A DNA stretch of 64,000 bases from positions 1-64,000 of the forward strand of contig NW_003314332.1 in assembly GCF_000143415.4 (NCBI RefSeq). The letters run 5' to 3'. Positions within the stretch are counted from its first letter, which is position 1. The number at the start of each line of letters is the position of its first letter. Shown piece by piece: positions 21,135 to 64,000 of this stretch. The translations under genes were made by a program, and so were the position numbers. The notes below the pieces were generated by a model, which saw only the letters and a list, made by a program, of their open reading frames with translations, was not told where the DNA came from and did not search any database. The DNA is from Selaginella moellendorffii (lineage: Eukaryota > Plantae > Lycopodiophyta).

Positions 21135-21186
21135 TAGCCGTTGGAACCTTTTTCATATAACATGATTCTTTTAGCATCTAGTTTGA

Positions 21187-21204
21187 ATAGTTAGGGTTTT
21201 AGGG
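21187..21204 (+). promoter_or_regulatory. Double telo-box-like motif upstream of SPO11-1
   Basis: ATAGTTAGGGTTTTAGGG, 14 bp before the ATG. Confidence 0.55.
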
Positions 21205-21218
21205 ACAGGCGGGAGACC

Positions 21219-23082
21219 ATGGCCGCTTGCCGCTGGCGCTCCGCGGCGCTCCAATCTCCTGGAGCTGGACATGGATCGGGGGTTCCGCCGGAAGAGCTCC
21301 TGGCAAGGATTCAAGGTCAGCGCCTCCCGCATTCTGTCGTATGCATCGAAATTCTGGCATTCTTGCAGATTTTATCAAGGAGTTTCTTTCTCGTATCAAG
21401 GATCGATCGATGCTGGTGATCAGTCTGGATAAATTTCGGATGCGCAAGCTTCGCTCTTCCGAGGACACGAATCTGTGAGCAAGTTTTGTTTGGAAGGTTT
21501 CTCATTCTTGCTTGCCGTGCTGCTTGTTTGCGCAGCGGGATATTTGAAAGATGTGAGGCGCAAGAAAACCTCTCACTCCAAACAAGTGGCCGTAGAATCC
21601 GTAAGTACTATTATGTCTCTTCACAGCTTGTGACTGATCTATCGTTTCGAATTCTTTTCCTAGTCGCTATGCTCAGGGTCCTTCAAATTGTCCAGTCGCT
21701 ACTCCAGCAGGGAAAACATGCATCGAAACGAGACCTCTACTACACCGATCCTGGTCTATTCAAAGGCACGCATGCTCTCTACTCTACTCGCTTTTTATGC
21801 TAGCGGTGGTTTTATTATAGCAGACCAAGCAACCGTGAACCAAGCTTTGATTGACATTTCCGTCAGGCTCAAGTGTACTAGATCTTCTCTTCACGTAGTA
21901 AGCTTTACCTGTTGATTGAATTTACCATCTGACAAGTCTGTCTTTCAGGTTTCTGTCGGCAAAGGGTACGTTCTCGCTACGTTGTGGAAGACTGGCGTCT
22001 TAGAGTTGATGCTCTTGCAGTTTAATCATGGGATCGCTGCGATTCAAGGATGCTGACAGGACAATTGACTGCTCGGTTTGCAAGTCTCGCGTAAGGCTAG
22101 TCTGTTTATTGACACAGTTGATACACTTGACTTTGTTCATTCAGGGCTATCCCATTCCCACAGATGCGAAGATGGTAACGGGTATCTTAGTCTTGCGATG
22201 ATGAGTCCTTTTTTTAATATTCTTTTCCTTGACCACCACAAAGACATCAGCAGTTGTGCAGAATACATTATCGTAGTCGAAAAGGAAACCGGTAAATAAT
22301 CTTCTGTCTGCCTCTTTCGTAACATCTTTCTTCTCAGTCTTTCAGCGACTGGCAAATGATGGATTTTGCAGGAAGAACAACTGTATAGTACTAACTGTAA
22401 GTTCTTCACACTTTTTCTACCTTGATCATAGATTCTTACGCACATGTACAGGGGAGAGGGTACCCCGACGTGGCTACAAGGAGGTAACAAGATTGTTTTT
22501 GACACCGCGTTCGTAACTTCGGTTTTGTTTTCAGTTTTTTAAGGCTTCTGGCAGCTGAAACAAAGTTGCCCGTTTATGGATTGGTGGATGCCGATCCGTA
22601 TGGCCTGGACATCCTTGCTACATACCGCTTCGGCTCGCCGGTGAGCGTTGTTTAATTGTCAAATTCTCAAGCAAATCCCGGCTTCCCCTTCAGACCATGG
22701 CATACGATGCTGAAGCTCTTGCTACACCAAGCATTCGATGGCTAGGAGTTTTCCTTTCTGATTGCCAAACGCATAATGTCCCGGATAGGTGCCTCCTTTC
22801 CCTGACAAACGACGGTAAGATCCAACTTTGTGATTGACAGATAGAAGAAAAGCCGAAGCCATGCTCAACAGAGACTACTTGAAGCACTTGGCATTCTCTT
22901 GGAAGTAATTTCAACCTGTGACTCTGTGCTAAATTTCTGTGGAGTTTTGCAGCCAGCAGTTGCGGCTGATGCTGGAGAAAGGTGTCAAACTCGAGCTGGA
23001 GGCACTGTCGGCTTCTAAATTTTCCGCGCTCGCGGACGACTACATTCCGCATAAGATCAAGGCGGCAGCATATTTGTGCTAG
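21219..23082 (+). CDS. SPO11-1: Meiotic recombination protein SPO11-1 (copy 1, full length, about 15 exons)
   Basis: Spliced exons give HASKRDLYY (catalytic Tyr region), [52 protein letters not shown] and KLELEALS. Stop TAG at 23080-23082. GC-AG intron at 21766-21823. Confidence 0.93.
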
Positions 23083-23237
23083 TATCCTTTTCGGACAGCA
23101 AACCGGTGCGTCATCCAATCAACACATTCAAAGGGAGCATCGCATTATTACAGAGCACCTCGACGGGAATAATCTCTCTTGATCCCGCCAGCAACATATA
23201 TGTGCTTCGTACATGGTATTTTGCTTCACTGCAAAGC

Positions 23238-23636
23238 TTATGGAATGCATGTGAGTCTCACACTCTGTGCTAGTCTCACTTCCGTCGCATCACAGAGTGA
23301 CACATTCGATCGAACTATGGTTGAAGTGCCAAGACAATCGGGCAGACTAAACAAAATTCCAGCTTGCCCGGAGTATGTGAAGCGATAGTAGAGTGGAGTG
23401 GCCACACATGTAGAGAAGCAAGGATTGAGCTTGGCCGTGTAGCTCGTTCCAGGGTCTTGGCAACCCGGGAGGTCGTAAACATCGAGCCTGCCGTTAGCAT
23501 CGACTTGAGTGATTAAGATTGTGATCACCGCCAGCACTGCTGCCATGATCTTCAAGAGATTGAGTGCCTGAGATCAAACAAGAGCACAGGAGTTGTTAAT
23601 AGGTGTAATACGATGCAAAGTGTGCAGCCAAACCAT
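23238..23636 (-). CDS. MiAMP1-like six-Cys secreted antimicrobial peptide, type A (left arm)
   Basis: ATG-only first exon (23636), intron, signal peptide, then LDVYDLPGC...YRFTYSGQAGILFSLPDCLG...C...SVRLTC. This matches the MiAMP1 pattern VxxxPGC..YxFxYxGQxxxLxxxxxCxG..C..SxxxxC. Confidence 0.75.
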
Positions 23637-23680
23637 TTCTCCAAGGACGGATTGTAGTTGAAGAACTAACCTTGTTCTTG

Positions 23681-23988
23681 TTTTATAGGAGTTTGAAGTG
23701 CTCATGGGTCGCGAGGATTAGCTTCTAGAAATTGGATGTGTGATCATGATCTGATTGGGTGATCGTGCAGCGCAAGACACACGCTCTGGAAAACATCCTT
23801 TGCAAAATCAAAATGTGTTTAGACTACAGTCTTAGTAGAGTGTGTAAGTGCATTAAAAAATATCCACGCTGAGCTGAACGAGTGTGCTGCTCTGCACGAT
23901 TATCCAACTAGATCATTGATCATGCATGAAAATTCCTATAAATTATAATCATCCTCGCGACCCACGAGCACTTCAAACTCCTATAAAA
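23681..23988. promoter_or_regulatory. Bidirectional promoter with inverted copies of a ~38-bp TATA-containing core
   Basis: TTTTATAGGAGTTTGAAGTGCTCATGGGTCGCGAGGAT at 23681-23718 is the near-perfect reverse complement of 23951-23988. Each copy points to one peptide gene. Confidence 0.8.
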
Positions 23989-24058
23989 AGCGGACACTAG
24001 TCCCTCAACTCCTCATCCTATTGTTCAAAGCTTTCAAGAAGCGTGTTACTGAGAAACA

Positions 24059-40145: not shown

Positions 40146-40737
40146 TTTATTCAGTAAAATGGGACTAGGTACAAATTTTCAAGTATTTGAAAATGACGTG
40201 AAATTATATGTTTTTTGTCCAGGGGCTAGACATATCTGGGGCATGGTGACTAGCGCGGTGACTTTGTGTCCAGACTGAGTCCATCTGGTTGTATAATAAA
40301 TCTCATTGTCAAGGTGAACAAGCCGAATCTGAAGCTAAAGAAGAGCGATGGCATGCGCGCACACACTATTTGTTTGTTCATTGAGCGTGTGGTGAGCTTT
40401 CCAAGATGAACGTCATTCCTATTAGCCAGACATATAACTTAATGGTGAGAACATTTAGATATTATTCAATGTTATCTTTTTCTAACGAATCTAATTGTAA
40501 AGGTGTAGCAAGAGGCATTGCTAGTCTGGAGAAGTCATTTAACTCATTTGACCCTTAGTGTATTTTCATGAAACTAAATAACATTCATATTATTAAGGAA
40601 TTTCTCTAGTACCTTTTTTTTACGACATAGAGGCTTGCATTTCTTTCAAAGGTGATTTAGTAAAAGGCCTGAGGGCACATGCCATTCTATTTCTCAGACC
40701 AGTATTAAGATATACTAGTGCAAAGGGCCACATGCCA

Positions 40738-43700
40738 TCACGCCTCCTCTGATTCAGATTCGGATTGTTCACCTTGAAATAAAATACATTAGAAACTTAG
40801 TAAAGGAATATTAAATCTCACCTTGAACCCGGGTTATGAATGCTCTTGCTGCATCTCTTGCATGGTCTGGCAAGGTGATGGTGGCACTCTGCTTCCGCAT
40901 CCAACCATGCACAACATTATCCACCGATATGCTCATGCTGGGATCCCTTGGATTCAGCACCCATCTCTTTTCTAGGCAATCCTTCGTATATCCGGAACTT
41001 GGCTTGAACCACTCCACAGTTACATTGAAGGAGTTAGTTTCCGCGTCCTCCTCTGCATCAGTGATGCAGCGCCCCACCCATATCATTTGTTTTTTATTAC
41101 TGGGTCTGACAAGCACGACCATTCCTTTGCAGACTTGTACTGGATTGAATGCTGAATCCGGCTTCTTGTTCCTCGGCCCACAATAGTGATCCTCAACATC
41201 GTTATCTGTCACTGCATTTCCAGAGGACATTGTTCCGCTACTATCTGGTGCTCTGGGTTCTGGCCAAAAGGACTCTTCCAATTCTTCATATACAACTGGC
41301 CCATTTTGGATAGCAGATATAATCTTCTCCCAGTATTCGAGCAAAGGCTTGCACCTCTTAAAATAGGATTCTCCACCAAACACCAACCCCCTCTTCTAGA
41401 AGGCAATATGCTGTCTAATCCCGGCCACTATACTTTCCTGGTCTTTGAGTCCATCCGGGTGCATCGGCCGTGGGGAACCCTGAGGAATCATAGGTTCCCC
41501 AGTTATGGGATCTCTCTTGAAGAGTTCAATGCCGTCCACTGGCAGCCACACTGTGTCCCATTCTCTCATCTTGTACCTCATCACTGGAGCACCGTCACGC
41601 ATGCTGAAATGAAACTGAAGAGGCTTGGAGTGGCCAATCAGCGTTTCAGATCCGTCCCTGATGTAGCCTCTTACAAACCCCTTAAAGTCTGGAACCTCTA
41701 TCACAAATGCAGCTTCAACAGTGCCTTTGATGCAATTTTGGAATTCATCGTAGAGTTGTGGGAGGGTGAGGACATTGGATCGCCGGAGGGACTCTGCCAG
41801 GTGACTGAACATGGCATCGACGTCTTCATGAGTGTGCCCAACCATGAGAAAGCCAAGTGTAACCGTTTCAAATATGCCTTTGGCAACAAGCATCGCCAAG
41901 TACGCGAAGACGTACATGTTTTTGTTCTCACTGCCAGCATTGTCTGTTTGGAGCAGAAGATGGGGTGGAAGGCCACATCAGCCGCAAGAACTTCCTTGAG
42001 ATTCTGCTTCGTTCGGATGAGGCTGTGCATTCACCGGGCGACCAGCCTCGTCGGAATGGCATGAGGCCTCACGTGATAACCCTACAATCTGACGGCCAAC
42101 ATATTCACTGGGATGGCATGGGGCCCCACGCGATACTGCAAGCCTTTGCTCCTCCTCCAGTTGAACCCTGTATGGGGTTCGATCGACAAGGGCCTTATGC
42201 AAGGGTTGGCCGTTCAGCTCAGTCTGCGCACTTTGCAGAGACCTTAAGTGTTTTGCTAGGGACGCAATCATCATGTTTGCACCCCCGCCACCCCATAGAG
42301 GTACAAAGAAGTTCCCATAGTTCTGGGCACCATGCCCATGAGCGATTATGCCAAACAGAGACACAGGCAGCTGCATGGATGAAGAGATTGCCTTGGGGGC
42401 AGGATTGAGTCGAGGTAAGCACGTCTTTTTCTGGTCCATTTTGTCGTGGATGATGCAGAGGTAAGAGTCAGGTCTCTCCATGGAGAGAATCCTGTTATGA
42501 TAATATGCAGTCCTGCAGCTTCTCTGCTCGATGTTGTGGTCGAGCCGCCTTCTAACCAACGTCTCTCGCTCTTGAGCGCTGCAAGAATTCTTCGACAAAG
42601 CCATTTTGATAGCAGTGCACTCGTCACACTTTGAAAAGCTGGAGTACTTTCCTATACTCACATCCCTGAACCTGTTGCTCCACAATCTACTAAATCTAGA
42701 TTGGCTCAGCTTCCTGTAGCCATTACTCTGGAGTTCCCGATTCACATCTTCCAATATGGCCCCCTTGGTATACATGGAAGGGAGAACTCGTTGGGTGTCT
42801 CGTGTTCCATCTTCCAAGAGGCGGGTTTTATGTGGTTGCTGCTCGCTACATGTCTCGACAAACCTCTTGAAGATTGCCTCTCCATATACAACATGACCCC
42901 TGGTTTTGTGCGTACCGTCGTTCCCATGGACTGCCTGTTGAACCCTTTGTTCCTCGAACTCAGTTTTGATTCTGTAGAATGTGGTTCGAGGGACTCCATA
43001 AATGATTCTCCATGCCTTCATGCAGACCAAACCCCTCTAGAAGACCATGCCCCCCACCTGATGTTCTGAAGCATCAACAGATGACTGTAATGCCTCATAC
43101 ACAAAATTGTGAGCTGCCTTCCAGGACAATGTCTTGTATCTTGCTCTCTCCTCTTCAATAGCATCCCAATCAGCATGTTGACAGCACCTCCTCTTGCAAC
43201 AAGCAACTGTCGAGACCATTCGAACCTCCATCGCCATTTTCTGCCTTTTCGGTTCGTTGCTCAGATCCCTTTGGCTGCGCTGTAGGAAGGTGTACTTTCT
43301 TTTCCCATGAAGAGATGTTCTGTCATCAGTTGTAGTGGTGTTTGATTGTGAATCCTTCACATTCTCAAACACTAAATGCCTCAATTTCCACCGCACAATG
43401 CTTCCAATAGTCAGACTGTTTTCTTCTGTGTCAACAACCTCTAAAATTGCAACTCCAATATCATCCCAGCCCAATTCTTGATTAGCAACCGCATCTCTTG
43501 GATCGACAACTGTGGCTAAGCCCTCAGCTACCACCTCCCCCTCGGGGTTGTTTAGAAACACCTTTGCCTGAATCCATGTAGCACGGTTCTTAAGATCCAC
43601 GGAGGGAACATGCGTCGCACTTGCGCTGTCCCCAACATCTGCTTTCTTCTACAGATTTTTCAAGGCAACAACAACATTTACCCCGACGACCATCTCTCCT

Positions 43701-47293: not shown

Positions 47294-50200
47294 ATGGTAA
47301 GTCTTTTAGGCCAAGTAGAAAATGGCATGAGGCCACATGCCATTCAGTAGCAACATTGGCATGCACCGATTGGGCTCTCGAGTGCAGTCCGGTTACAGAT
47401 GGCGTGTAGCCTCACGCCATCTTAGGATGCAGCCTCAAGACATCTGATGCAGTGGTGAATGGCGTGTGGCCTCACGTTATTTCCAGGTACTAGCTTTTCA
47501 TCTGTCAGCTCTAATTGTTGTGCATTTCTGAACAGGCGAGGAATTGCGTTCTTCTTCCAGCCACTATCAATGTGGATGCAGAGAAGGGGGAGGAGCTCAC
47601 CAGTTGGACTTTCGGGATGGAAGGCGAGGATCTGAGGCTGTACAACACAGATGGTGGGAGAAAAGAATGCATGGGGATCCTCATCCAAGTGACAGACACT
47701 CCATGCAGTTCCATGCAAGAATATGGACTGGCACTTGTGGTAGAGACAGCGTCTGCCTTCAAGATCCACCTTGCACATCCTAGCGGCTTCCCGGAGGGGG
47801 GTAGCGGCTATGAGGAATTCCTAGAGGGAGCTAGGGAGAGGTTGTCCAGGAGGCCCACAATTTCAAAGACGCTGCGGGTCTATGAAGATCACATGGAATC
47901 CACGGACCTCACCTACGGCGATGTTCAAAAACTATATTCCAACATTGAGCCGTTGAGAGTGACTCCAGTTCGCGAAGCAAAGGGGAAGGGGGTCGATCTG
48001 GAAATTACCTCGAAGCAGAAAAGGGTGGTCAAGCTCAAGCCGACGTCCGACTCTCCTGCTCCAAAAAAGAAGGTACTCAGTGATGCCATTGCCTCGGGTT
48101 CGAACACTACACCCACCAAAAAGAAGAGCCGCAAAGAGCAGAAAGAGCAAGAAGAGGCAGCAAAAATCGTCGCAGATAATAGTACTTGTTACTATTCCAA
48201 CAAAGTATATACAATCGACGTGAGCCGTATCGACATCCAAAGCAAACACAACCACAGGCTAGTATCTGATGAGTGGGTGGAGAAATTGAAGCAGAAGATG
48301 CTGGCAAGTCCAGTAACACCCGACATCGCAGACGTGATCCCCTACTACCAAAAAATGAAGGGCGAGATGAGGTTTCCAGACTTGATCAATAGGAAGGTGT
48401 TGGACGATCAGAACATCCGGTTCTATGCCGTCTCCGGGCAGCATTCTAGCTTGGTGATGCAAGAGATAGTTGTGGATATTATGGTGGGCGAGGAGGTGAA
48501 GAAAGTCTTCAAGACAAGAGTTGTCCGCCTGATAAAAGGCAACTCGCCCCTCCGATCTATCATATACATCTCCCACGCGCAGAATGTCAAGCAAGAAACG
48601 TGCTACAAATCGGGTCTGCACGAGACATTGGCACGAACACGGAAGCTCTGGGTTCAACTGAAGAAGCCACAAAAACCAGGACAAGGACGTGCACTAGCAA
48701 CTAGCGCCTGGCAGGTAAGCCTCGTTGTATGTGGCATAGCATGTGGCCTCACGCCATTTCCATTGCAGGAATTCTCGAGTCTTCTCTCGAAAACACTGGG
48801 GGTCAATGACACACTCAGCATCCATAACATTCTACTCGCGACAAAAGTTGTTTTTGACAAATGGGTAGATGTGCTGAGGAGGTACCATGACGGGGAGTTG
48901 CCAAACTCAATGGGTGTGGAGGACGGCCGGAAGCCCAATGATTTGAAGCTCAACGCCTTGCGTTTCTCGCTGTCTCTAGACGACGACGACCTTCTGACAG
49001 TGGCTAATGCTCTTCTACGTGGTGAGGTTGTCTTCAACAAGACCAAAATGACTCCCGCCCATATTGTGACATACGAGGACTTGTGCACGACTCTGAGAGC
49101 TCGTGCGCTATTGAAGGATTAGATCTTCGAGCAAGTGGCCGTGGAGAGGGTGAGCATCGACACCACGCAAGAGATGATGGAAGCGCTGGAGTTGTCAAAT
49201 GAAGACATCGACGAGTACGTGAAGGGGGCCCCCAAGTTCATCGATCTGCTGCGGGATGCCACGAAAAGTAAAGCTGAGAAGTTGGATCAGTATCCAAATT
49301 TCATTAAGATTGATGTCGACCGCCGGCTTCAGAAACAGCTCGACCCCGCAGCAGAGGCCTATCGAGAAGCTTACCGGGTATACTTGAATTCGGATGAGGA
49401 TCAAAGGTGGAGGAGCATCGTTTCCCGCGGAGATGAGCAGGTCAAGAACATCTTTTGTGTGATGGACTTCACAAACGAGGAGATCACTCATGCAGACGAA
49501 GTCAACTCCATCATTGACTTAATGGTGGGACTTGCGGAGGTGGAATCTTCAGTCCACTATATGATCTACGACTCCGAATCCTATCACAAGTTCTGGAAGG
49601 CCTTGAACGAGGTGAAGGCTCGGTTGAAAGGCAAGGAGATGCGGGAGATCCATGGGATAATGGCTAAGAAGAAGATACCGACGAATGTCCGCATCTTCAC
49701 ACTCGCCCTTGTTATTGGTCCTGCAGCAGAGTGGGACTGGAGTGACTTCCCAGCTTCGTTCGACAAGGCCAATCGAATTGATCTGAGGGAGGTCAATTTA
49801 CCCGTGCCTGAGGAACTGAAGACGGCTATGGAGCTTTCGAATCCAAAGAAAGCTCCAGGTGCAGCATGGGAAATGCTCAGCTGGGTCTTCAACGCAATAG
49901 CGGGTGGGTCACCTGCTTCCGACTCCAAGGGCAAATGCGTTGTCGAGTACAACTGCGGCGGACTATTCTTTCAAGCCGCACTACTCAAGGGTGTCCCGTG
50001 TGTTGCGGTGACAAACTCCATTGAAGAGGTGACTTCAATGGAGCATATAATTACAGTTGCCAAAGAAAAACAGTATCTTCTCTGCGAACCTGGTGAGTAC
50101 GCACTTTAAGTTTAAATGTTATCTCACAAGCTCTGTATGCAGGAGCGTGGCCACCCCCAGATGCTGAAACGGCGTTAACAGCTACTGTTGAAGATACCCA

Positions 50201-52916
50201 TGTTGGGCCGAGCTCACAACCTGCACAAGGTAAGGTCACGTGAGGCCTCACGCCATTTTGATTATAGATCGTTGTGAATATTCAGACACGAGGACTGAAA
50301 AGCGCACTGGTGGCGCATCGAAGAAGGACAAACAGAAAAGCAATAGGAAAAAAGGAGGTACAAATTATATTTGCAATGGCGTGTGGTCTCATGCCATTCC
50401 TTGCAGGAGAAACTTCTTCAAAGGCAAAACAGGCAAGCACCAGCCAAGCTCAAACTGACAGTGGTCATAAAAAGCGAAAGCACGTTGGACAGTCGTCGAG
50501 ATCAGAGGCGTTTGATTCGAAAAGGAAGAAGGGCAACGAAAAGATGATAGGTAATGCCTCGCGGTTATGGCGTGTGTGCTCATGCCATTCATTGCAGATC
50601 AAGGGCTGAGTGAAAGCAGGCAGTCACCACCTCATGACTCAGATTCCTATGGCGGACTCCCTTTCCCCAATCTCAATGGAGAGGTACAATGGATGAGGGA
50701 AGTTTTTCAAGGCAGGGCCACGTTTTTCTCATCTCGTCGTCTTCGAAGGGTGCAAGAACGTGCAGAAACCATGTTAAGACAGTCGGGTGAGGATACGGTC
50801 CTAGGTCACGCACTAAAACAGGCTATGGATGTCTTGTATTTTGAGATGGAGACTCGGCCAGATGATTTTCCCAAGATGGTCCTGGAAGAACAAGCCATCC
50901 AGCCTGAGCAGCCTATGGAAGAAATGCAGGAGGGGGATGAAGAGCCAGAGAAAGATAATGAGCAGGAAGAGCAGAAGGACGAAGAGGAGGACAAAGAAGA
51001 GGAGGACGAAGAAGAGGAGGACGAAGAGGACTTGGATGGTCCTCACAATGGTGACGATCACAATAACGACGACGACGATGATGACGACGATGGCCAGCCT
51101 GAGGTGGCCAAAGAGCGGCGGAGGAAGGTCATACAAGACAAACCATCAGGTAAATAATAATACATCCATTCCTAACCTTTTACCATTTCTAACATTGTCC
51201 ATGTAGGTCGCAGAGCAAATGGTAAGTAGAGATTATTCAGTTGAATTTACAAACTCTAGCCTTTAGTGTCGAGGAAGGATAGTGCCAAGCAAGGGTCGAA
51301 ACGTATGTCCAATCCTTCAGAATCAGCAGTGCGCTCAAGTGATATCGGTCCTAGTTCCTCAATAGCAGTTGATGGTAAATACAGTATAGTCGATTCAATG
51401 TGCTAATGAGTTTGTTTTTAGTAGCACGGGAGGATACCATCTCAATCGAAGGGAGATATTTGGACATGCATATGGATCCGCCAGTGGACTCTACTTGCCT
51501 GCAAGAGTCATCAGAGCTGGTGGAGGCTACTATCCATATCAACACCAAGCAAGCTGACCACGCTCCACTTGATGCTGCCCATACCACTGAGTCAATCTTG
51601 TCCACGTATCCAACTGACGGTGACCAGGCGCCATTGGACCCACATGAGGCCGCCCCAGCCGCCGAGCCGGTCGTATCCTCATTTCCAACGGACTCAACGT
51701 GTGCCCAATCGTCTGACTACGCGCCGTTGGAACCTCCCTACACCGCCCCTGCTGCCTGTTCGGTCATGTCCACTTTGCCAACGGAGGCACCAGCTGAAAT
51801 GGCGTGTGATCACACGCCATCGGAACCACCCCATGCCACTGTTGAGCCAGTTGTACCAGAGTCTACAGCTGAAATGGCATGTGCCCACACGCCATCGGAT
51901 GCGATTGACCCCACATTGCAGAGGAGAGTATTTCCGCCCTTCACGTTTCCTCGACCAAAACCCTCTCAACGACCATCGGGAGCAACATTCGCTAATATTG
52001 TAGATGGTAAAATTGACTTGTACCATTTTTTATGCTGACGCATTTCATTTCAGAGTCACGGCGAAGGTACTGTATCGTTTTTGATCTGAACGGTGTCCTT
52101 TTCTCCCATGAGTGTGGCTCGTCCTCGAATGTCATTGCACCCTCCAAAGCCTGCGGTCGCAAGTTGGTCAAAAGAGACAGATTCACATTAATCACACGGG
52201 AGAAACTGCGGGATCTAATAATGACCATGCGACACTTAAAACAGAGGGCCGGGTTCAATTTGCAATTGGGAGTTTGGACATCCATGATGCGCCACAATGC
52301 ATTAACGTTGCTACAAATGATGCACGATCAGACGCGAGTAATATTACCATTTGACTTTCTCCTAACGCAGGAGGATTGCTTGACTATGGTCCATGTGAGG
52401 GGTAGCAAGCCCATCTTCGTCAAGCCAGAGGCTGTAGTGATGAACCGGACTGCTAGCTCAAGTGAAATCCTCATCATCGATGACTCGCCGATTAAAACTG
52501 CAGCGAACACGCACACATATGCAGTGCACCCCATCTCTTGCAGTATGGAAACTAGGAAGAAGAAACCGTATGTTCTGGGGGACCTTGCAAAACGGCTTGG
52601 AGCGATGGTGATAGAGAACTGGCCAGTCCAGGAGGTAGCTGCAGAAATCAACCAAATGGCAGATGAAACGGTATATCAGAAGCCATTTGATCGGACAGAC
52701 ACCAGTCATCATTTATGGCATGTATATTGTCTAGCCAAGCACTATCCGCATCTCCATAATCTGCTCAACCGGATGGGTTCTTCGACCACTGAACATGAGC
52801 GTGGACGTATTAGAGAAGAGATGGCATTACTATTGGGTTTAAATCCTGATAGTGTGGAGAGTGATGAAATTCCAAGATTATTGTATAAGCGTTGGAGGCA
52901 AAAAATAACAGTCTGA
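47294..52916 (+). pseudogene. Transposon accessory gene: ParB-like + degenerate N4/N6-methyltransferase fold + acidic/Pro-rich linker + FCP1/NIF HAD domain (one in-frame stop at 49120)
   Basis: ORFs 47515-49122 and 49135-50109 are co-frame. Motifs: IDVSRI..RLVSDEWVEKLKQKM..FYAVSGQHS; KAP..VVEYNCGG..AALLKGVPCVAV; IVFDLNGVL..GVWTS..LTQEDC..KPIFVK..LIIDDSPIK. GT-AG introns link the exons, e.g. 48715-48768 and 52007-52053. Start is uncertain. Confidence 0.65.
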
Positions 52917-53334
52917 GATGGCATGTATTTATTTAAAAATGTAACTTATTATGGCATGGGGTTCCATGCCATTGTATTAATATTAAAAGACAATTCTTTG
53001 AGAGGATTTGCATTATACTAGAAGTGTTACAGCATGTTATTGGAAGTCTACGAAGTTGTTTTATTAATAATGGGAAAGTAAAGATTGAATGGGGACTTGG
53101 GCTCCACCTAGACTCGGAGCAACTGAGCCAATATTAAAAGGATGGAAAGAAATTGGACGACGATGACAAGGAGAAGAGAGAGGTGAAGCAGTGGCAGGGG
53201 GAGGAGAAGTGATTGAGTAGACATTTCCTTGTTTAAAATAAAATGGCATGTGCCTCAATGCAGTTGAATTTTGTTATATTTATATACTATATAAAGGTTT
53301 GGAAACTTTATTTTACAAGTGGGATAATGACAAT

Positions 53335-53358
53335 TCCCACTTTAACGAAATAGAGCTT
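53335..53358 (-). repeat. Right terminal inverted repeat
   Basis: TCCCACTTTAACGAAATAGAGCTT. Confidence 0.93.
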
Positions 53359-55597
53359 GTAAGGCGTCGTTAGTATTTTCGGAAAGCCTAGAATGAGGAG
53401 CACCTCTAGAAATAAATGGCATCCAAAACCAAGCTCGGAAAAGCACAAATTCCTACTACAAAGATGATCCAATTTAGCTGGAGAAGAAAATCCTTTTGTA
53501 TGCTGTCAATTCACTCAAATCTAGCGCCAAGAATCACCACTACTTGTAGATCTAGGCCAAATCTACAAGCCCAAATGCACTACTTTAAGAAATTGGGCTG
53601 AGGATTTAGATGAGAGAATAAAAACCCCAAAATGTTTATCAAATTGAGCCAAGAAATGTTGTATCTCTTCAAATACTGCACAATTTTATGAGTGCCTTAC
53701 TTTGCTAGAAAGAGGAGCTTTAAACCTATTTAAGACGCCTAAGATCAAACAAAACCACCACAAGATGAACAAGAAATTGCTTCCCAAAGTCTATGGCCAA
53801 AAAAAAAAGAGAGAAATGATGCCTTAGAAAGTGTTGTGCATCACGCTAGGTTCACCACTTGTTAGGGGAAAGAGGGGTGCCTCCCTCAACGCTCGCTCAA
53901 ACACGAGAAATGCTTTAATGCTCTCCACAAATGCCCCCCTTTTGCCCTTGTGGGGCAAGGGTTTTATACAAGAAAGATGGGGAATATTTTGAGGACCAAA
54001 ATATTCCTTTTCTCTCTCTCACTCTCTCAATGGCCACGCTTTAACATCATTTGTCCACCTCAAAGGGAAGTTAAGGAAGACTCCCATGTTGATGTTACTG
54101 GACATTGGTAAAGATTTTGAGGTAGAAATGGATGCTTCAAACTTTGCATTGGGTGCAATTTTGAAGTAGGATAACCATCTAATGGCATTCTTCTCAAAGA
54201 AATTGAACAAAACTTAGTGAAAGTGGCCTGCCCACAAAAAGGAATTATTTGCGGTGGTCAAGGCGCTCAAAGAGTGGTAATACTACCTTGGGAGGCACTT
54301 CAAAGTTTATATGGATAATGTGGCAATGAAACAGTTATTGTCACAGTACGACCTAAGAGGAAAACAAGGTTGGTGGGCCAATGTTTTGGCCCAAGTTCAA
54401 TTGCAAGATTCTATATAAACCTAGGAAGAGCAACATCTATGCCAATGCTCTAAGTTGAAAGGCAAGTTTGAAGTTGGTGATATCCAATGCAACAGTATCC
54501 TTTTGGGATGATGTGTGGATAGCATATGAGAACGATGGTCTAGCACAAGAAGTGTTGCTAAGGAACCAAGAGGCATAGGATGTTCATCAGAAAGGTGAGC
54601 TACCAACAGAAGAGAAAACAAGATATGTGGAATGCAATAGACTCATCTATTATAAATAAACGAAGATGTATGTTCCAAAAGGGGAACTAAAGAAAGTAAC
54701 CTTAAAAGAGTGTTATGATGGACCTTTTGCAAGACACAACAGAGTGCCTAAAACAATGGAGTTACTCAAGAGGAAGTATCATTGGTCAGACATAGCTAAT
54801 GACTCCAAGACTATGTAAAGACATGTTTAACATATCAACAGGTCAAAACCATGACTAATGCTAGTGGGGGCTTGATAAAGCCTAGATCATCCATGGAAAT
54901 GTCTTATGATGGACTTCATCATGGGACTTGCCCTAAGTGAGGGGTTTGATGCAATATTTGTGGTGGTGGACTGGTTTTCAAAGATGGTACATTTTATACC
55001 CACCACGATAGAAGTGGATGCAGAAGGTGTGGTGAAGCTATTTTTTAAACAAATGGTTCGAATGTAAGGAAGGCTAAAAGAAATCATCTCAGATCGAGAT
55101 AAGATCTTCACCAGGAGGTTCTGGAGAACTCTCCTAGAACAATATTACACCAAGTTGAAATTTAGCACAACTTATCACCCACAGATAGGTATTGGGTATT
55201 AAGTCAAGTTTAATGGTACTAACACTTCTTGACAGATGGACAAACAGAAAGAGTGAATAAGCAGCTGGAGGATTATTTGCAATATTATATCTCAGAAGAC
55301 TAGACTAATTAGGTAAGTCATTTAGGATTTGCAAAAATATGCTATAACAATTCACCACATTCAAGTATCAAGATGAGTCCATGGGAAGTCATCAATGGGG
55401 AAGCTATTGAAGGTCTTGTGGAACTTGGTGTGGCCGAGTATCATAGAGAGTTATCTGCAATAGAGGCATTCACGGCAGAAAGACTCAATATTTAGAATAT
55501 AGTGAGGGATATTTTGGAACGAGCTTAACAAAGGCAAATTAAATATGCAAATTAGAAGCGATCGTCGAGGTGCTACTACGCGCCGCCTTGCGTTTGT

Positions 55598-55697
55598 NNN
55601 NNNNNNNNNNNNNNNNNNNNNNNNNNNNNNNNNNNNNNNNNNNNNNNNNNNNNNNNNNNNNNNNNNNNNNNNNNNNNNNNNNNNNNNNNNNNNNNNN
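55598..55697. other. Assembly gap (100 N)
   Basis: Run of N. Confidence 1.
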
Positions 55698-56569
55698 ATT
55701 CCGTAGAAAGATGTTTTTACAGATGAGTCTTTATGATATTGAGGCTTAAATTAGTAAGGTAGCTTACCACCTCTGACTTCCTTGTTAGATGGGGAAGATA
55801 CATCTTGTGTTCCACATGAACTTACTCAAGTTGTACTTTGAGGATCCACTTCACAAGGACCAAGTAAGACCTTTACTTGAGGTTATTCAACGGGAAGAGG
55901 AATATGAAGTCAAGGCCATCCTCAATGCATGCAAGAGTAAGTGACAAAGACTTGAGGTGAGGGAGTTCCATGTGAAGTGGAAAGGATTTCCACACTGCAA
56001 AGCAACATGGGAACCAAAAAAGAACCTAGTGAATGCGGAGGAGTTTTTGCAAGGTAGAACTTTATGTGCTTATGCAAAATTCAATTAAAGAATTTATTTG
56101 AGAAATTGAGCAATGTCGTATATTAGGACCCAAAGGCGCGTCGAAGGTAAGCTAATTAGCATGGGTTAGCTAGGTCAACTAGGCATAGGAAATTATGCAT
56201 GACTCCCCGTAGGGATGTCAAATCCGTAGACATATTCTATGGAGGTTAGGTTTAAGTCCCAACCCTTTAGTAAAGCAAGGTTAGATTCAAGTCTTAACCC
56301 CATATTAGGGCGTGGTGAGGTGAGGGGTATAGGGACATCTATACTCTGTTGTCATGGGCTCTTGGCCAGGGAGGTTAACTTAGGCACACTGCTAAATGGG
56401 GGATACCCCTGGAGACATGGATAACAAATTAAAAAGAGCTATTTGATGCGGGCATTAAACTTCTTTTATGGGTGGTGGAGTTGAAAGGAACCAATTCCCT
56501 AAGGTGTCGAAAGTTAGAAGATCTCAAAATCATGACCAAAATGATAAAGAATTCATTGGATGAAGCTGA

Positions 56570-56822
56570 ATCTGAGATCAAGTCCGAGATTGAGTCCGAG
56601 ATCGACTTTGAGACCAAGTTCGAGACCGAGTCTGATATTGAGTCCAAGATCGAGTCCGAGATCTGAGATCGGGTCCAAGACTGAGTCTGAGGTTGAGACC
56701 GAGTCTGAGATCTAAGATTGGGTCCGAGGGCAGGTCCGAGATCGAGTCCAATTTCGAGTCTGAGACCAAGTCCAAGATCAAGTCCGAGATTGAGTCTGAG
56801 ATTGAGTCCAGGACTGAGTCTA
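56570..56822. repeat. Degenerate 12-bp (GAGATCGAGTCC) tandem array
   Basis: Repeated GAGTCCGAGATC variants within LTR-like sequence. Confidence 0.85.
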
Positions 56823-57566
56823 AATACTAATACAGGTTGTGGGGTGAAAGCCCAAAGTATGTGTCTCCTCGGGGGGGAGGGCTGCAGAGGGTTCCAAAAG
56901 TATAGTAAGGATAGTGAGGTTTAGGAATTAGTCTTGAAGAAATTCTCTAGTGGTGCTTCCAAACTGACTTGAGGTTAAGATTGGGGTTGAGGAGCCTTAG
57001 GTGGGAGTGAGCATGGACTTGGGTGGTGCCGGAAGGGCAACCCAAGGAAGTGCTCAAAAGTAGCTCCCACTCTTGGAAGGGAAACCAACTACAGTGCTCC
57101 TGACTCATGTGGAGTGGTGCCTTATTTGAGTACCTTGTGGCTTACTGGTCTTTGTCCTTCCTAGGGGCTTGGGCATTCCCTTAAGGATGGAAGTGGGGGA
57201 GTAAGGGTACCCATACTGGACCATTAGGCCATGGTGTTTCCCTTTAGTATCCCTAAGCAAGTGTTACACCTAAGGCTTGGGATTTAAGGGGTTTTGTAAT
57301 CAAGTTTTGTTGTACCAAGAGATGTTAGGAATTTAGAGGCTAGGTGTGCTTAGCTACTTATGAGTACGGGGAGTGTAACCAAACCTTAAGTCTAGTCTAA
57401 CCCAGGGAAGGGGATTAAGAGAGAATTTAGGAATCCGTGGATGGATGGCTAGCACTCTGTTATTTATATAGTGAGTTGCTAAAACTAAGTAGGACCAAAT
57501 AGGAGCTGGTACAATAGGTGAGAACCTTAGTGAGGGAATTTAACTAAAACCAAAGCTATGGTGGTC

Positions 57567-57666
57567 NNNNNNNNNNNNNNNNNNNNNNNNNNNNNNNNNN
57601 NNNNNNNNNNNNNNNNNNNNNNNNNNNNNNNNNNNNNNNNNNNNNNNNNNNNNNNNNNNNNNNNNN
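57567..57666. other. Assembly gap (100 N)
   Basis: Run of N. Confidence 1.
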
Positions 57667-60600
57667 TTAAAAGTAGGAATCAAGACTAAATGGTAATTCC
57701 ATTATGAAGGAATACATTTGAAGGAAAAAAAAGGTAGATAAAAGCTTGAGCTAAAAGCAATTTAGAATTTTATAGTGTTTCTATATGGAAGTCAAAAGAA
57801 AAAAAAAGGGTAGAAAAGTAGATAAAAAGATTGATATAAAAGCAATTTTAGACTAAATTGGGAATTGAGGGAAAAATAAAGAAGATTGAAGAGGTGAGAT
57901 AAAAATCAAATAAAATGACTTTTGGGAGAAAAAGTAAATACTTATAAACCAATTGCTTTGCTGTTTTATTCATGATGTTAGATGACCATGGGGTTTGATG
58001 GGGTGTAGTCCTTGTCAAAAATTAGAAATTGTATTGCTTAGCTTGTACTAATAGTTCCTCACTTAATGATTTTTGCTAACCAAGCTTATTTATTACACCA
58101 TAGCTAGAAGCTATTGTTTTCTCTTGGCACACCCCAAAATTTTCACTGAGATGGCTACTCCAAAAAATTGATCAACCACTTCACTCAAGCCTCTTGTGGG
58201 AATTCTCTCTTTGCCAAGTGGAGTTTTTCAATATAAAATCTCTAGTCATTCAAGTCATAAGTGGTAACAATCTTCGTTCATTGATTTCCTCAAGTGAGAC
58301 TTGTCTAGGCAGAGGATATACTTCTAAAACAACATTTCATACTTCTGGTATACCTTCTGTATTACTTGTATTTTGGCCTCTTCTTTGGAAATGCCAGTGA
58401 TTTTATCTATAAGTTTGACTATCTTATACTTGACCTTGTTCTAAAAAAGAAATAAAGTTAAAACTATACTCCTAAAATAAAAAAAATAACATATTAGAAA
58501 TAATATTTTCACAAAGACCCATCATGTGAATGGATACTATACTTTCCTTTTAGTGTTGAGTTCATTTCTTATTAAATTGATGCCTTCAATGATCATCCAA
58601 TCTTTGTAGCCTTCCCTTGATAATATTTTGTTTAATATAGTAGAATTGATAGATACTAAAGAGTATGTTTTACAACCCACTAAACTGTATACCTGATTCA
58701 TTGATGTTGCAAAACAAACATAGTTAAATTCCAGTTTGCAACCAAATGCAAAAATACTCATTTGTTTGATTCATCATTTGATAAAGTTGGAGAGCATTTG
58801 TCCTTTTTGTCAATGAAAGACACTTTCAAGTATCCTACGTGAATGGAAATAATCAATTAATGGCATACATGATAGTTATTAAAGGTATTTTCCTTTTATC
58901 AAGAAGAAATATATTAATATAATGTTCTTTAGCCATGTTTAATTAAGATTCTTCTCAAACTTTTGCTTAAAGTCTTCATTCTAGTCAATCCAATGTTGAT
59001 CCTGTTACAACTTGATGACATTAATGATATAAGTTATCCATTAAAGCTTGTTGAGTGTGGAGATGATGAATTCCCCTTTTCTAGGAGATAACCCTCAAAC
59101 CAGAATCATTTACCATCTTCTTGTCAGGTATATCCACACAACTTGATTTAACATTATCTAATAAAAGGAACAAAAGGTGGAAGATTGTTATGATGGATTT
59201 AAATGGAATCCATAATCTCAGATAGTATTCTTGCATGAATCTTAACAATTGAAAGGGATTTGGCCTGACCCTTCTTTATATTTATTATTGTCACTTTTGA
59301 GGAAGGCATTCTTATCAAAGAGAAAGGCATTGTCATCAAAGAGGAAAATGTTGCCATGGAATAAAAAGGCATTGTTGTTGAAAAGGAAGGAGCCTCATTT
59401 TTCAACTATGACATTAGTGTGTTTTCCACCATACTACTTTTAGGATTAACTGTAGAATCCATTATACCAATTTTGCTATTTGTTATATCACTCAAACCTT
59501 TTGTCACTTTTTGAACTTCACTTTCTTCTTGCTTATGTGTCTTAAAGTGATGTGTGAGAATTATGAACTCCTCATTTCTCTGCAAAGCATGAGTGATTAT
59601 TTTTGACATCTTACCCAAAAATGCTACAATTGAAAACCTAACCCTAACCTTAATTAAGCTAAACTATGTTAAAATTTGGTAGTATAATATTCGCCATTGA
59701 TTCCTCCCACCAAATGCATTAAATCTTTTGCAATAGAATAATCATAATTGGTATTTAATAGGAACTAATGGAATCTTTCTTGGAAATGCACCAATTTTTT
59801 TGGAATAATTTGTAGCTGATTTATGATTTGGCGCTGAAAAACTTTTAATGGTCTTTTTTGGTGAAGAACAAAATGAAAAATGTATACAAGTGCAAAACAA
59901 GTTTTAAACTTACTTTTCATAGTTTTATAGTTGAAGAATGTGGCATTAATTGGAATGCTGTTCAAGAAGTGTATTTTGGAGTTCATGAAAGACCAAAAAA
60001 AGAGTGTTCATGTGTTTTCCACTTTGAGTAAAGTTTCCAAATGTATATCCAAAAATGCATTATACATCACTATCAATAAGAACATTTTGTTAATAGTGAG
60101 AGTAGGCTAAGATTAAGGAAGAGGCAAAAGCTTACTTCAATAAGATTTAATAGTGCTAGAAAGAAAAAATAATTCAAAATGATAAGTAGGGATTAGAAAA
60201 TAATTTACAAGAAGCGTCAAGTGATAAATTCACATTTTATTGCCATTGACAACATACATAGGCCAAATTTATTAATAGGTTGTGGCTCATCTGTTAACTC
60301 AATCCAACCATTAACAACCATCAGATTAAGGTAAATTTTTTGTGAGAATTTTGTTACTATTAACCATATTTGGAGAACATGGCTAATAGTTACTAGGTGC
60401 AAGAGAACCCAATTATTATCATCCAGGTTTTAGAAAACTTGGCTACCAATAGCCACATTCTTTAAATGCAACTTCTTTTTATTCTTTCATTAAAGCAAGT
60501 TTGAACAATTCAAGCTCATTTTGGCTATGGCCATTGAGTACAATGACACAATTACTCATAGTATAATGGTGAAATGTGGTGGTGTTAATTAGTAGTGTTA

Positions 60601-62200
60601 AAGTTTTTGCAGTTTATGGATCTTTGGATAGAGCTAAAAGTAACTCATTATTATCAAAATCTACAAATAATATCAAAACTTAGAAATAAAGAGTTCAAGT
60701 CAAATAACGCTTTATTTTCATAAATGATCGATTCCTACTACTCACCATGCTCTGGCACAATCTCATGTTTCTTGTTATGTCCATCTGAAATAAAGAGAAA
60801 ACTAAATTGAAAGAAACAAGGAAATTTTTTTTTCTTACCTTACTAGTCTTTAATCACCTCTAAAACTTGATGGGAGTTCAGCTTATGGATCTTTTCTCTT
60901 GGACAATTATTAGGTTACTACTACTCAAGACCACCTAAAATAGAGAAAAGAGAAAGTTCTATTATAAAAATTTTGGTTTTTTGGCCAAAATTTTGTTATT
61001 GTTGCTCATGAATTTGAGCCTATTGATCGTCATTTCCACCTAAATTGAAAAGAATGTTAAACCTCCACAAATGAAAGTGCTTTTAGTTACTAAAAGTAAC
61101 AAGTTAACAATCTTGAAGATCCAATGGGTCTTTATTTAAAGGTTTATTAGCCTATTAACAACATATAACTCTAATGCTTTTTTAAATTTGTCTTGATAGT
61201 TTTTCAAATGACTAGTACCGTCATACTAGTTATATAGAATATATAACATTGCCATTCTCCTTGCTTTCCCAAAGTGATTATACTTATTAAAAAATGAAGA
61301 TGGTTAGCAAAAACCTTATTATTCTATGTTTTTCACCCTCTTGTGTCCAATCAACTTTCTATAGTCTTCTATTGGGGTATTACAATAATTTATAGTTGTA
61401 ATTGCCAAGTGCCAAATGTCTTTTGATAAGAGACTTAAACCTATAAGAATAAAAATTATGAAAAAAAAGAAATAACCTTTATAGGAAGTTCCTCATTCAC
61501 TCTCAAACCTTGTAACAAAAATTCTAGGCCTTATGCCTCACGTATACATAGAATTTTGATGTTGCCCACTTGTTCTTCTTTTGGGTCCTTGTTGGTATAA
61601 TTAGTTCCAATGGGTTCTTGTCTTCCTTATTCGAAACAAATGGTCAAGAAGGTTGGCAGCCAACCTGGTGGGTGTAGTGGTTATGGTCAGAGACACACCC
61701 ACCACTTTGACTGCAATTCCTCCCAAGATAAACCTATCAAATGATTGCAAGTGAGTAAACAAGAATACAAAAAAAGGGGCTAGGTAGTTTTTGAGCTAAG
61801 CTCAAGTCAATGAAAGTCAATATAGTTTACCAAATACAAAAGTTGATGTTTAAATGATTAGTTCAGGACAAACCAACAATTCTATTCAAACCTTAAGACA
61901 TATTTTTAGTCCAAGAAAAAGCTAAATAATATAAGTCTAATAAGAAGATAAATATCATAAGTCAAAGAAGAAACTCTATATTACCAATAAAAAATTCGAC
62001 TAAAAAAAAACTAAACTTAGTCTACCTCAGCATCCACATCCACAAAAGGAGGAGTTTGTATAGTATTATACTCTCTAATTGTGGGCTGAGCTTGTGCCAT
62101 TACTTCTGCATAACATGGCAAATTATAGCCCACATCATCAATCCACCTAATATACACAACCATGATGGAATTACTATAATGAGAAATTTACACTTTATTA

Positions 62201-62473
62201 TCACCTATTATGAAATGTCCCAAGAACACCTTCAAATGTACTTTCCTTCTCTAGTGCAAAAACCACATGGCTAGTCTCTTTAGCCGCTAGCACTATTGAA
62301 TTAAAGTTTACTATAGCATCAAACACAATCCCTTTAGGAGGACAAAACAACTCTAGGAGGATTTGCATAGCCTTTAGTGAATGGTGTTGATAGTTAGGGA
62401 ACTCTATATGATGGTTCTCATTAATGACATTCAGGATGATATCTATTAAGCTATCATATCCTAGCAATGCCAA
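62201..62473 (-). pseudogene. Fragment resembling the SAM-binding end of a beta-class N4/N6 DNA methyltransferase
   Basis: QHHSLKAMQILLELFCPPKGIVFDAIVNFNSIVLAAKETSHVVFALEKE parallels QKP.L...LI..FS.PGD.VLDPF.GSGST..AA...GR..IG.E.D, but the glycines are lost. Confidence 0.55.
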
Positions 62474-63060
62474 ACTTGCAAACTCATCAGCTCATGTAAT
62501 ACTATGATGGCAAAAGTAGTGGCAGAGAGCATGGTAGTTCCATGCTAAAACCTACAATGAAAAGAGGCAATCAATTTAAGATATAAAAAATAAGGAAATG
62601 CAAACCTTTTAGATTTGGCCACCTGCTCCTTTTGTTTCAACTGGGATGTTTGAGAGTAGGTAGCCTGATGCAAACTCAACTAATCTAGAGTCATCATTTT
62701 CTACCATTGTTGCAAGAATGTAAGCAACCAAAAAAAAGACTTGAGAGATGATCCATGGGGTTCAAATATAGAGGGAAAGGGCCCATGAATAAGAGTGCAC
62801 CCCCATTTCCAATCAGTTAAAGGTTTTATGATGTTTAGGGTTAAGCGTCCTTGGGTTTAAATAGTACTTGGGCTGAGTGACCTCCTAAAAAGTCTAAATT
62901 TAGGAGCTTACAAAGAAAACCTCCTCAAAATAAAGAACGGGGAAGAATGACTAACATAATGCCCTCATATCACAACACCTTGGATGCCACATCCACCACT
63001 TGAGAAATATAGTCTGGTCAAAGGATGTTCCAGGATGGAGTGTCACATTATAAAGGTGGT

Positions 63061-63193
63061 AACCCATTAGGCAAGTTGAAGAACGCAAGGTTGATGCCAA
63101 ATGAACAATCCATTAGGCAAGTTGAAGAACACAAGGTTGATGCCAAATGAACAACCCATTAGGCAAGTTGAAGAATGGAAGATTGATGCCAAA
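63061..63193. repeat. 46-bp tandem repeat, about 3 copies
   Basis: AA(C/T)CCATTAGGCAAGTTGAAGAA... starts at 63061, 63107 and 63153. Confidence 0.9.
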
Positions 63194-64000
63194 AGTATTG
63201 TTCATTCCCAATCCTCGTATCCATTGATGGAACATAGAAGACTCTCGGCTCACGTTGTTAGAAAGCTAAAAGTAGTCCCCAATAACTATTTCCACATTGT
63301 CAACACTTCCCATAGGAGAAAGAGGGCAAACTTGAATAATGTTCAAAACCAGGAAATATTAAAGTTAATACATGTTTTTTTTCATACCTGTTTATGTGAA
63401 GCTGATGAAGATAACCCTTGGAGGTCATCCTCTGTAGCAGTGGGGAGGGATGGAGAGAATGCATTTTATGTCGGTGTATAGAGTGCTGGTTGGTTTCTTC
63501 AACATCTACAACCAAATTACAATAAACAAGGTCATTGGAAATCAAGTTCGTACTCTCTTGGATGTCCTCACTATGGAGCTACCTTCATACATTTCAAGTA
63601 GTTGGGACTAGATGAGCAGCGGCAATAGGATATGGAGAATAAGCAACTGCTGTAGGATGAGATGAGGCAAGAGAGTTTTCAACCGGTTCTCCACTTGTTC
63701 CTCTTCAATCTACTCAATATGAATCTTGCCCTTGTCTGAGGCATCTCCACTCCCTCCAAAAGTACCTCTACAATAAAGTAGAAACATAAGTTATTGCTAG
63801 GAAGTTTTACTCATCAAATTTGGATGACACTCGAGGTAGAGATCTAGCTCAAAAGGTGACAATGGCATTTGCCTCCATAACTCCAAGTACCATGGACAAA
63901 GTTCTCGCTCCTGCGTAGTGGGACAATGGAACTTTGGCTCATACATGCCAAGTTTCTTCCCACTAGTTAAGTGCTTGAGAAAAACACTTGTTATGTACAC

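Follow-up and report, generated by a model that had tools for sequence, protein, structure and literature searches.

A dispersed 22-bp palindrome in a DNA transposon of Selaginella moellendorffii with a predicted ParB-fold gene: candidate sites for the element's own accessory protein

Results

The transposon and its genes

The present study analyzes a stretch of 64,000 nucleotides of the Selaginella moellendorffii genome (contig NW_003314332.1, positions 1 to 64,000; hereafter the window) and, within it, a DNA transposon of 13 kb that encodes a transposase and a second, accessory protein and that contains about 20 dispersed copies of a 22-bp palindrome, ATGGCRTG-N6-CAYGCCAT. The palindromes are confined to the element within the window, and they look like recognition sites of a protein dimer, probably that of the accessory protein. 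The boundaries, genes and domains of the element are as follows (TIR, terminal inverted repeat; LTR, long terminal repeat; CDS, coding sequence).

40122..53358, no strand: whole element, 13,237 bp, a DNA transposon (likely Sola1-type) in LTR-like repeat; delimited by perfect 24-bp TIRs, depth and the ends of other copies
40122..40145, plus strand: left TIR, 24 bp, perfect
53335..53358, minus strand: right TIR, 24 bp, perfect
40118..40121, plus strand: putative left copy of a likely 4-bp target duplication, CTAA
53359..53362, plus strand: putative right counterpart of that duplication, GTAA
40811..43876, minus strand: transposase CDS, 1021 codons, four in-frame stops in this copy; PF25273 (DUF7869), E 2.7e-40
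43878..44178, minus strand: predicted 5′ intron (GT..AG) of the transposase gene, with a single base between its end and the ATG; from sequence
47294..52916, plus strand: predicted accessory gene of 1643 codons in 11 exons, interrupted in this copy by one stop (codon 512); a single frame continues across the ten GT-AG introns
48142..48600, plus strand: predicted ParB/Sulfiredoxin-fold domain with phosphate motif SGQHS; AlphaFold model and structure comparison
48601..49119, plus strand: predicted helical domain at the position of the DNA-binding domain of ParB, interrupted by intron 2; from the model
49360..50092, plus strand: degenerate N6/N4 DNA-methyltransferase-like domain, no DPPY-type motif; from the fold of homologue P0002
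52054..52601, plus strand: NIF (FCP1/SCP-like HAD phosphatase) domain, first motif DLNGVL; PF03031, 28.3 bits against a cut-off of 21.8

The element is a multicopy transposon: contig depth is 57–133 inside it versus about 2 in the left flank (three runs, one sample), other copies have different flanks at the left end (40117–40124), a contig from another copy stops at 53358, and an empty-site paralogue of the flank (run X12) passes from 40121 directly into right-flank-like sequence. The simplest reading of the ends would be a 4-bp duplication, CTAA/GTAA, with one change (three of four bases identical), and TA or TAA with ragged ends also fits. This copy is decayed and broken; the stops at 41397, 41980, 43651 and 49121 are sense codons in other copies, and of the 132 places at which run X4 differs from it, 85 are of the C>T/G>A kind. 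A related element (runs X12 and X24) shares 40124–40165 and then reads TTAGCATG-TGTCCA-CATGCCAT, placing the motif just inside its end, and a contig of run X3 (record 11) has both TIRs about 290 bp apart and is a probable non-autonomous derivative; the two may belong to one short family.

The acidic motifs of DUF7869 (HDKMD, Q.DN and GHTHED.D) are kept in the window and in eight homologues with constant D2–D3 spacing, the pattern by which the transposase is predicted to be DDD-type. An N-terminal TNP1/En/Spm-like domain gave a PF03017 match below the cut-off (E 1e-3), and no relative of the transposase was found in prokaryote genomes. DUF7869 presumably equates with Sola1, an equation helped by likeness to the brown algal element Sola1-1_Ec32. 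Membership of Sola1 appears likely from architecture, ends and duplication length, each compared with Sola1-1_Ec32. Sola1 transposons make a 4-bp target site duplication (PMC10741241), and the accessible portions of three further sources (PMC4455052, PMC5751038, 10.1101/2021.09.26.461848) offered no usable Sola1 diagnostic.

A palindrome confined to the element

The sites, from a mismatch scan and from a position weight matrix (PWM), are distributed as follows.

40348..40738, no strand: three palindromes, left subterminal, at 40348, 40664 and (weak) 40717; mismatch scan and PWM
42056..42134, no strand: two palindromes in the transposase CDS, in a hypervariable loop (residues 581–607); homologue comparison
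43878..44178, minus strand: three palindromes in the predicted transposase 5′ intron, at 43950, 44020 and 44118; PWM
44733..46632, no strand: sites between the divergent genes, namely half-sites at 44733 and 45702 and palindromes at 44805, 45774, 46532 and (weak) 46611; partly local duplication
47322..47480, no strand: three palindromes in predicted accessory intron 1, at 47322, 47399 and 47459; PWM
48736..48757, no strand: palindrome in predicted accessory intron 2, with CTCAC at branch-point distance
50235..50588, no strand: palindromes in predicted accessory introns 4, 5 and 6, at 50235, 50376 and 50567, the latter two at branch-point distance
51799..51895, no strand: two palindromes in the accessory exon that encodes the Pro/Ser/Ala-rich linker
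52951..53264, no strand: palindromes 3′ of the accessory stop codon (52951) and right subterminal (53243, weak); mismatch scan and PWM

The mismatch scan covered the whole window, and counts in the element were compared with those in the other 50.8 kb. At no more than 0, 1, 2, 3 and 4 mismatches, the element had 9, 13, 19, 21 and 25 matches, with all of those at three mismatches or fewer lying within 40348–53264, and the remainder of the window had 0, 0, 0, 0 and 8. Order-2 Markov simulations of the element yielded means of 0, 0, 0.03, 0.4 and 2.8 at the same limits, and in shuffled sequence 0.05 matches were expected at two mismatches or fewer, with a maximum of 1, versus the 19 seen. A PWM was built from 18 sites (the 19 at two mismatches or fewer, less one duplicate); scores of 8 bits or more anywhere in the window marked exactly 23 full sites, and the top score outside the element was 3.3. 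Sites scoring at least 20 bits, of which there were 20, are called strong. An earlier note on this DNA had listed about 25 dispersed palindromes restricted to the element. The restriction is borne out by these counts; of the 25 positions, 23 are full-length at four mismatches or fewer, and the other two, 44733 and 45702/3, consist of just the right half and the spacer.

Patterns within the motif are consistent with a dimeric site, as that note had also proposed. When spacer lengths from 0 to 15 were tried, exact or one-mismatch matches occurred with 6 bp only, and 44021–44040 and 51799–51820 are indeed perfect palindromes. The spacer sequence is not as free as had been suggested: it is partly constrained, about NGSSCN, with G10 and C13 each present in 17 of 18 sites, which matches the conservation of arm positions, and with the central GC in 10 of 18; about 18 positions are constrained across 22 bp. 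Positions 6 and 17 are unpaired in 7 of 18 sites (A-C in six, C-T in one), positions 9 and 14 pair in 6 of 18, and fold energies of single sites spread from −0.5 to −9.5 kcal/mol. Since the halves vary independently and pairing is not kept, a double-stranded site for a symmetric protein dimer is indicated rather than a hairpin, and the hairpin reading was rejected on this ground.

Flanks of the strong sites are mostly unrelated, in agreement with the earlier description, with a median identity of 0.25 over 190 pairs and identity above 0.5 in only two pairs, 44805/45774 and 51799/51874, both of which are local duplications. Around the strong sites no flank duplication was present at 15 of 20, one of 1 bp at three, and AAA at one duplicated pair. 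An independent micro-MITE or introner is thus disfavored, there being no target duplications of its own, no copy outside the element in the window at three mismatches or fewer, and unrelated flanks; similarly, tandem repetition was rejected, as no tandem array contains the motif and the flanks differ. Rfam gave no match. A tightened motif was found at 58 loci in metagenome contigs with one exact site each; a second site (at two mismatches or fewer) occurred in 2 of 58, none of the loci had a relative of the transposase or the accessory protein, and these matches are chance.

Only 4 of 20 strong sites were in CDS although CDS makes up 60% of the element (p 2.7e-4), while 10 of 20 were in predicted introns, which make up 7.5% (p 5e-7), and the first predicted intron of each gene has three sites apiece. 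The four coding sites are two in the transposase hypervariable loop and two in the accessory low-complexity linker; for transposase residues 551–625, identity to eight homologues was 0.05–0.14 versus 0.33–0.59 in flanking blocks. Sites thus piled up wherever sequence was free, a pattern that suggests selection for a large number of them over the full length of the element, and it may be that selection accumulated them also around intron branch points. In predicted accessory introns 2, 5 and 6, CTCAY of the motif lies 16–18 nt from the 3′ splice site, and in four motif-free predicted introns YTNAY lies at 15–17 nt, so that the sites in introns 2, 5 and 6 seem to double as branch points. Five of the ten predicted accessory introns have no motif. 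T at position 14 occurs in 6 of 7 accessory-intron sites versus 3 of the remaining 13. The earlier note mentions neither this marked placement at introns and branch points nor the methyltransferase-like and NIF domains of the accessory protein.

The region between the divergent genes contains local duplications (44725–46337, at spacings of about 870 and 969 bp) that have copied motif sites too, and joints in other copies suggest that this region varies. Short telomere-type (GTTTAGG)n runs occur there at 45162–45187 and 46032–46058.

The accessory protein

The accessory gene is divergent from the DUF7869 transposase gene and faces away from it. Its first predicted intron is 239 nt and the others are 45–57 nt, and the position of intron 2 agrees with ends or gaps of homologues. 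A run thought to be RNA had no spliced joint and its contigs read through predicted intron 1, so that it is probably DNA and uninformative on splicing. Relatives of the protein occur in Selaginella moellendorffii and in the liverworts Calypogeia fissa and Riccia sorocarpa. A HMMER scan of representatives gave 17 matches, among which P0003, P0006 and P0009 were rejected as homologues and excluded, being repeat-driven chance matches; a word-indexed search found none with the accessory open reading frame (ORF) and only P0016 (Riccia) with alignment A1.

The earlier claim that the element encodes a ParB-like protein is supported by modeling. AlphaFold with a 16-sequence alignment predicted a ParB/Srx fold followed by a helical domain at pLDDT 81, versus pLDDT 33 from the single sequence, and the foldable part that bears the ParB fold comprises 326 residues. 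Noc, KorB and ParB led a Foldseek comparison with PDB at E 2.4e-3 and weaker, none at E ≤0.001, in alignments of about 300 columns; taken together with those to viral models, the Foldseek alignments cover the ParB and helical domains at TM 0.39–0.45. Structure alignment gave Z 9.1 for PadC (rmsd 3.2 over 100 residues), Z 8.5 for KorB and Z 8.1 over 203 residues for pNOB8 ParB. Among viral models, five were at E ≤0.001, the top one being a chromosome-partitioning protein (viral ParB; E 2.9e-5, TM 0.45, 330 columns). Neither the ParB nor the methyltransferase domain was picked up by sequence searches of PDB, NCBIfam, PHROGs and Pfam, and phage tblastn gave nothing useful for the accessory domains. 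For residues 100–300 of P0016, the nearest Atlas clusters by features were fungal DUF3723 and ParB_N, with unnamed sponge, mollusc and basidiomycete clusters also near. Fungal DUF3723 is, in the accessible part of its source, an accessory gene family of Starship elements, and accessory genes with a ParB fold could be common among the mobile elements of eukaryotes.

All 12 family sequences that cover the phosphate motif read G[QA]H[ST] there, with S or T where GxxR has R. The Box II arginine of GxxR is needed for nucleotide (CTP) binding in ParB, according to the accessible text of PMC12704722. Two genes fill the element, and a ParA ATPase was sought among nine of its ORFs with no ATPase-family match. 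With the arginine replaced and no ParA-like gene found, loading and spreading gated by CTP, which the earlier note had entertained, is not supported. The helical domain matched SopB and ParB DNA-binding domains weakly in VIA-align (Z 3.0 and 2.9), and Pfam found no helix-turn-helix (HTH) match in the accessory protein.

The Selaginella homologue P0002 has an N6_N4_Mtase fold (TM 0.70–0.72), and its nearest models include phage and bacterial fusions of ParB_N with N6_N4_Mtase; the corresponding segment in the window is tied to it weakly (E 4e-4, with 0 of 1000 shuffles as high). With motifs matched by eye, one of DPPY/SPPY/NPPY type is present in YhdJ but absent in the window protein, P0002, P0015 and P0016, and the S-adenosylmethionine (SAM) motif is EYNCGG versus DPFAGS in YhdJ. 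Searches of Pfam, phage and PDB sequences returned no match for this domain, nor did profile comparison with YhdJ link it. P0002 and P0028–P0030, all from S. moellendorffii, have helical and methyltransferase-like domains with no ParB domain as annotated; either the gene models are truncated or, possibly, these proteins represent a domesticated version. An acidic, Pro/Ser-rich linker precedes the C-terminal NIF domain of the accessory protein.

Surrounding sequence

The window also contains PPR genes, which, like the introns of 45–57 nt, fit a plant host. At 21053–35788 is a nest of large inverted and direct duplications. Its inverted arms of 3,003 bp are 99% alike, its direct repeats are spaced by about 5.78 kb, and it includes a small ORF, present several times, that weakly matches the MiAMP1 antimicrobial peptide (E 7e-4, below cut-off); this is probably a young cluster of defense-peptide genes. 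The element is flanked at 36000–40121 and 53359–64000 by stop-ridden, LTR-retrotransposon-like sequence that is CpG-depleted (observed/expected 0.24–0.27, versus 0.70 in the element), the right flank including a 12-bp tandem array at 56559–56845 and an assembly gap near 55600.

Discussion

The explanation we favor, and consider probable, is that the palindromes are sites for a dimer of the element's own ParB-fold accessory protein, which would mark copies of the family and, in the face of host methylation, maintain their transcription and mobility. The helical domain following the ParB domain would read the two half-sites, and the bound protein would recognize family copies of the transposon and maintain their activity in a manner comparable with VANC and TnpA of Arabidopsis. 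With both the arginine and the catalytic motif lost, a sequence-specific scaffold is favored over a CTP-gated sliding clamp or an active methylase, and the NIF domain of such a scaffold could act on RNA polymerase II or on chromatin proteins. Several observations weigh against this explanation. Matches of the candidate DNA-reading domain to ParB and SopB DNA-binding domains reach only Z of about 3 and Pfam gives no HTH, and the introns are predictions. The transposase appears to be an equally available candidate binder. The strong excess of C>T/G>A changes means that this copy was probably methylated despite carrying the sites, and the higher CpG ratio of the element may reflect age alone. A short element too small to contain genes carries the motif as well, as would suit a role in transposition.

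That role could be one in which the transposase, or the accessory protein as its helper, binds the sites to join the ends, and we regard it as unlikely. It would suit the presence of sites near both ends of the element, at distances of 227 bp and about 95 bp, the retention of one site just inside the end of the related short element, the extra N-terminal domains of the transposase (one with the weak PF03017 match), and the precedent, in the accessible part of 10.64898/2026.08.24.746577, that transposases can be sequence-specific regulators. Against it, most sites, including all nine exact ones except 52951, are at least 1.4 kb from any end, the subterminal sites 40348, 40717 and 53243 are among the weakest, and the grouping of sites in the first intron of each gene is suggestive of transcription or chromatin. 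The first introns and the space between two promoters would also suit sites that recruit a host transcription factor exploited by the element for its expression, and the telomere-type repeats at 45162 and 46032 are in keeping with this. The center of some sites resembles the TCP site GGNCCCAC, and the telomere-type runs could be telo-box promoter signals. Yet about 18 constrained positions far exceed sites of that sort, and no copy was present in the other 50.8 kb, of which host genes take up about 20 kb, which makes a host factor quite improbable.

It has been proposed in print for Ectocarpus Sola1-1_Ec32, in the accessible part of PMC12477816, that a protein of this kind modifies its own element, and the ParB-methyltransferase fusion could accordingly still be an enzyme that writes a 4mC or 6mA self mark at the palindromes. 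The N6_N4_Mtase fold of the closest named homologue and the occurrence of ParB_N plus N6_N4_Mtase fusions among the nearest models are consistent with an enzyme, but the missing catalytic motif in all four proteins inspected, the divergent SAM motif and the absence of any Pfam, phage or PDB sequence match for the domain leave little probability for an active methylase. Finally, the motif could be a by-product with no binder at all, for example a signal for splicing, a hairpin, or a very small mobile unit that was copied around within the element. The branch-point distances in introns 2, 5 and 6, similar to those of YTNAY in motif-free introns, the enrichment of T14 in accessory introns and the two site pairs that arose by local duplication are all in the direction of such a by-product. 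Splicing, however, would explain three to four sites at most and leaves half of the accessory introns without the motif, hairpin pairing is lost with fold energies that vary widely, and 15 of 20 sites with no flank duplication, unrelated flanks and the lack of an Rfam match argue against a mobile or structured unit; we consider a by-product very improbable.

A broader and more speculative proposal, which we put forward tentatively and hold to be possible but doubtful, extends the explanation by the accessory protein. Non-seed land plants might carry a transposon-borne ParB/parS-like system derived from phage or bacterial ParB-methyltransferase fusions, in which the protein would load at about 20 dispersed palindromes, coat its own 13-kb element, and shield or activate it by means of a methyltransferase fold that is dead together with a phosphatase domain of the polymerase-II type; sites at branch points would cost nothing, and each family would have its own palindrome. 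If true, this would offer a sequence-specific epigenome tool set unrelated to VANC, with one palindrome per family. If the accessory protein does act as proposed, plants would have, in addition to VANC and TnpA, a third means of sequence-specific anti-silencing, one of prokaryotic origin, ParB-bearing transposons would extend to land plants through the relatives in Selaginella, Calypogeia and Riccia, and a ParB fold would be working without the canonical CTP arginine. With a sharply defined candidate site of 22 bp, whose roughly 20 copies in the window all lie in the element, beside a foldable protein part of 326 residues, the proposal is directly testable.

Comparison with known systems

Descriptions of the systems compared here are drawn from the accessible parts of the cited sources. 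One of the closest is Sola1-1_Ec32 of Ectocarpus, in which an opposite-strand gene joins ParB-like and N4C/N6A-methyltransferase domains and for which the authors suggest that accessory proteins of this kind form a class, each binding and modifying the element that encodes it (PMC12477816). The Selaginella element shares with this algal class an opposite-strand accessory gene with ParB-like and N6_N4_Mtase-like parts, the methyltransferase fold being that modeled for P0002, and both are large TIR transposons with ends that start AA and a 4-bp target duplication, a likely one in Selaginella, biased to end in A. Sola1-1_Ec32 differs in being from a brown alga, 21.5 kb long, with 282-bp imperfect TIRs and an 1104-aa protein, and its description, as far as accessible, mentions no NIF domain or internal palindrome. 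The methyltransferase motifs of the Selaginella element, in contrast, are degenerate, and the intact (D/N/S)PP(Y/F) catalytic motif of the algal class was not found in the window segment, P0002, P0015 or P0016. In the red alga Bostrychia, Plavaka PAG3 has a gene with ParB-like and 2OG oxygenase domains alongside tandem inverted-repeat arrays that are its proposed sites (10.1101/2025.02.11.637652). A ParB-like accessory protein, inverted repeats as proposed sites and proposed self-modification would be common to both, but PAG3 has an EnSpm/Plavaka transposase and tandem arrays beside the gene, whereas the Selaginella palindromes are single, have unrelated flanks and occur throughout 13 kb, introns included.

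In Arabidopsis, the motif bound by VANC21 lies in intronic and non-coding sequence of its own element (PMC5735166), and TnpA of Spm binds clustered motifs and activates its own family (10.64898/2026.08.24.746577). These systems resemble the present one in having an accessory protein of a DNA transposon and many short family-specific motifs in introns or non-coding parts. They are, however, Mutator or CACTA elements with DUF1985/DUF287 or tandem HTH proteins and non-palindromic motifs of 8–10 bp, and VANDAL motifs were multiplied by tandem repeats, unlike the Selaginella motif; family scans of the element's proteins gave no match to Mutator transposase or DUF1985/DUF287. Bacterial ParB/parS, Noc/NBS and KorB/OB likewise have a ParB fold followed by a helical domain and many palindromic sites on the same replicon, and two ParB-family proteins, KorB and VirB, serve in gene regulation and not in DNA segregation (PMC12704722). 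The Selaginella gene differs from these in being eukaryotic and intron-containing, with no phosphate-motif arginine, no ParA found and a 22-bp site. The element is therefore parS/ParB-like or VANC-like in layout but is not a member of ParABS, as GxxR is lacking and no ParA was found, or of VANC/VANDAL.

No land-plant case appeared in the searched literature on ParB with transposons and on the ParB fold, a body of work from which subscription journals were mostly missing, and the accessible portions of PMC4738411 and 10.64898/2026.05.21.726589 describe no such land-plant element. Self-binding or self-modifying ParB-bearing transposons have already been proposed, without test there, in two algal genome papers, as far as their accessible text shows. 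What is new here is the land-plant lineage, the dispersed and intron-embedded palindromes, the degenerate ParB and methyltransferase motifs, and the added NIF domain.

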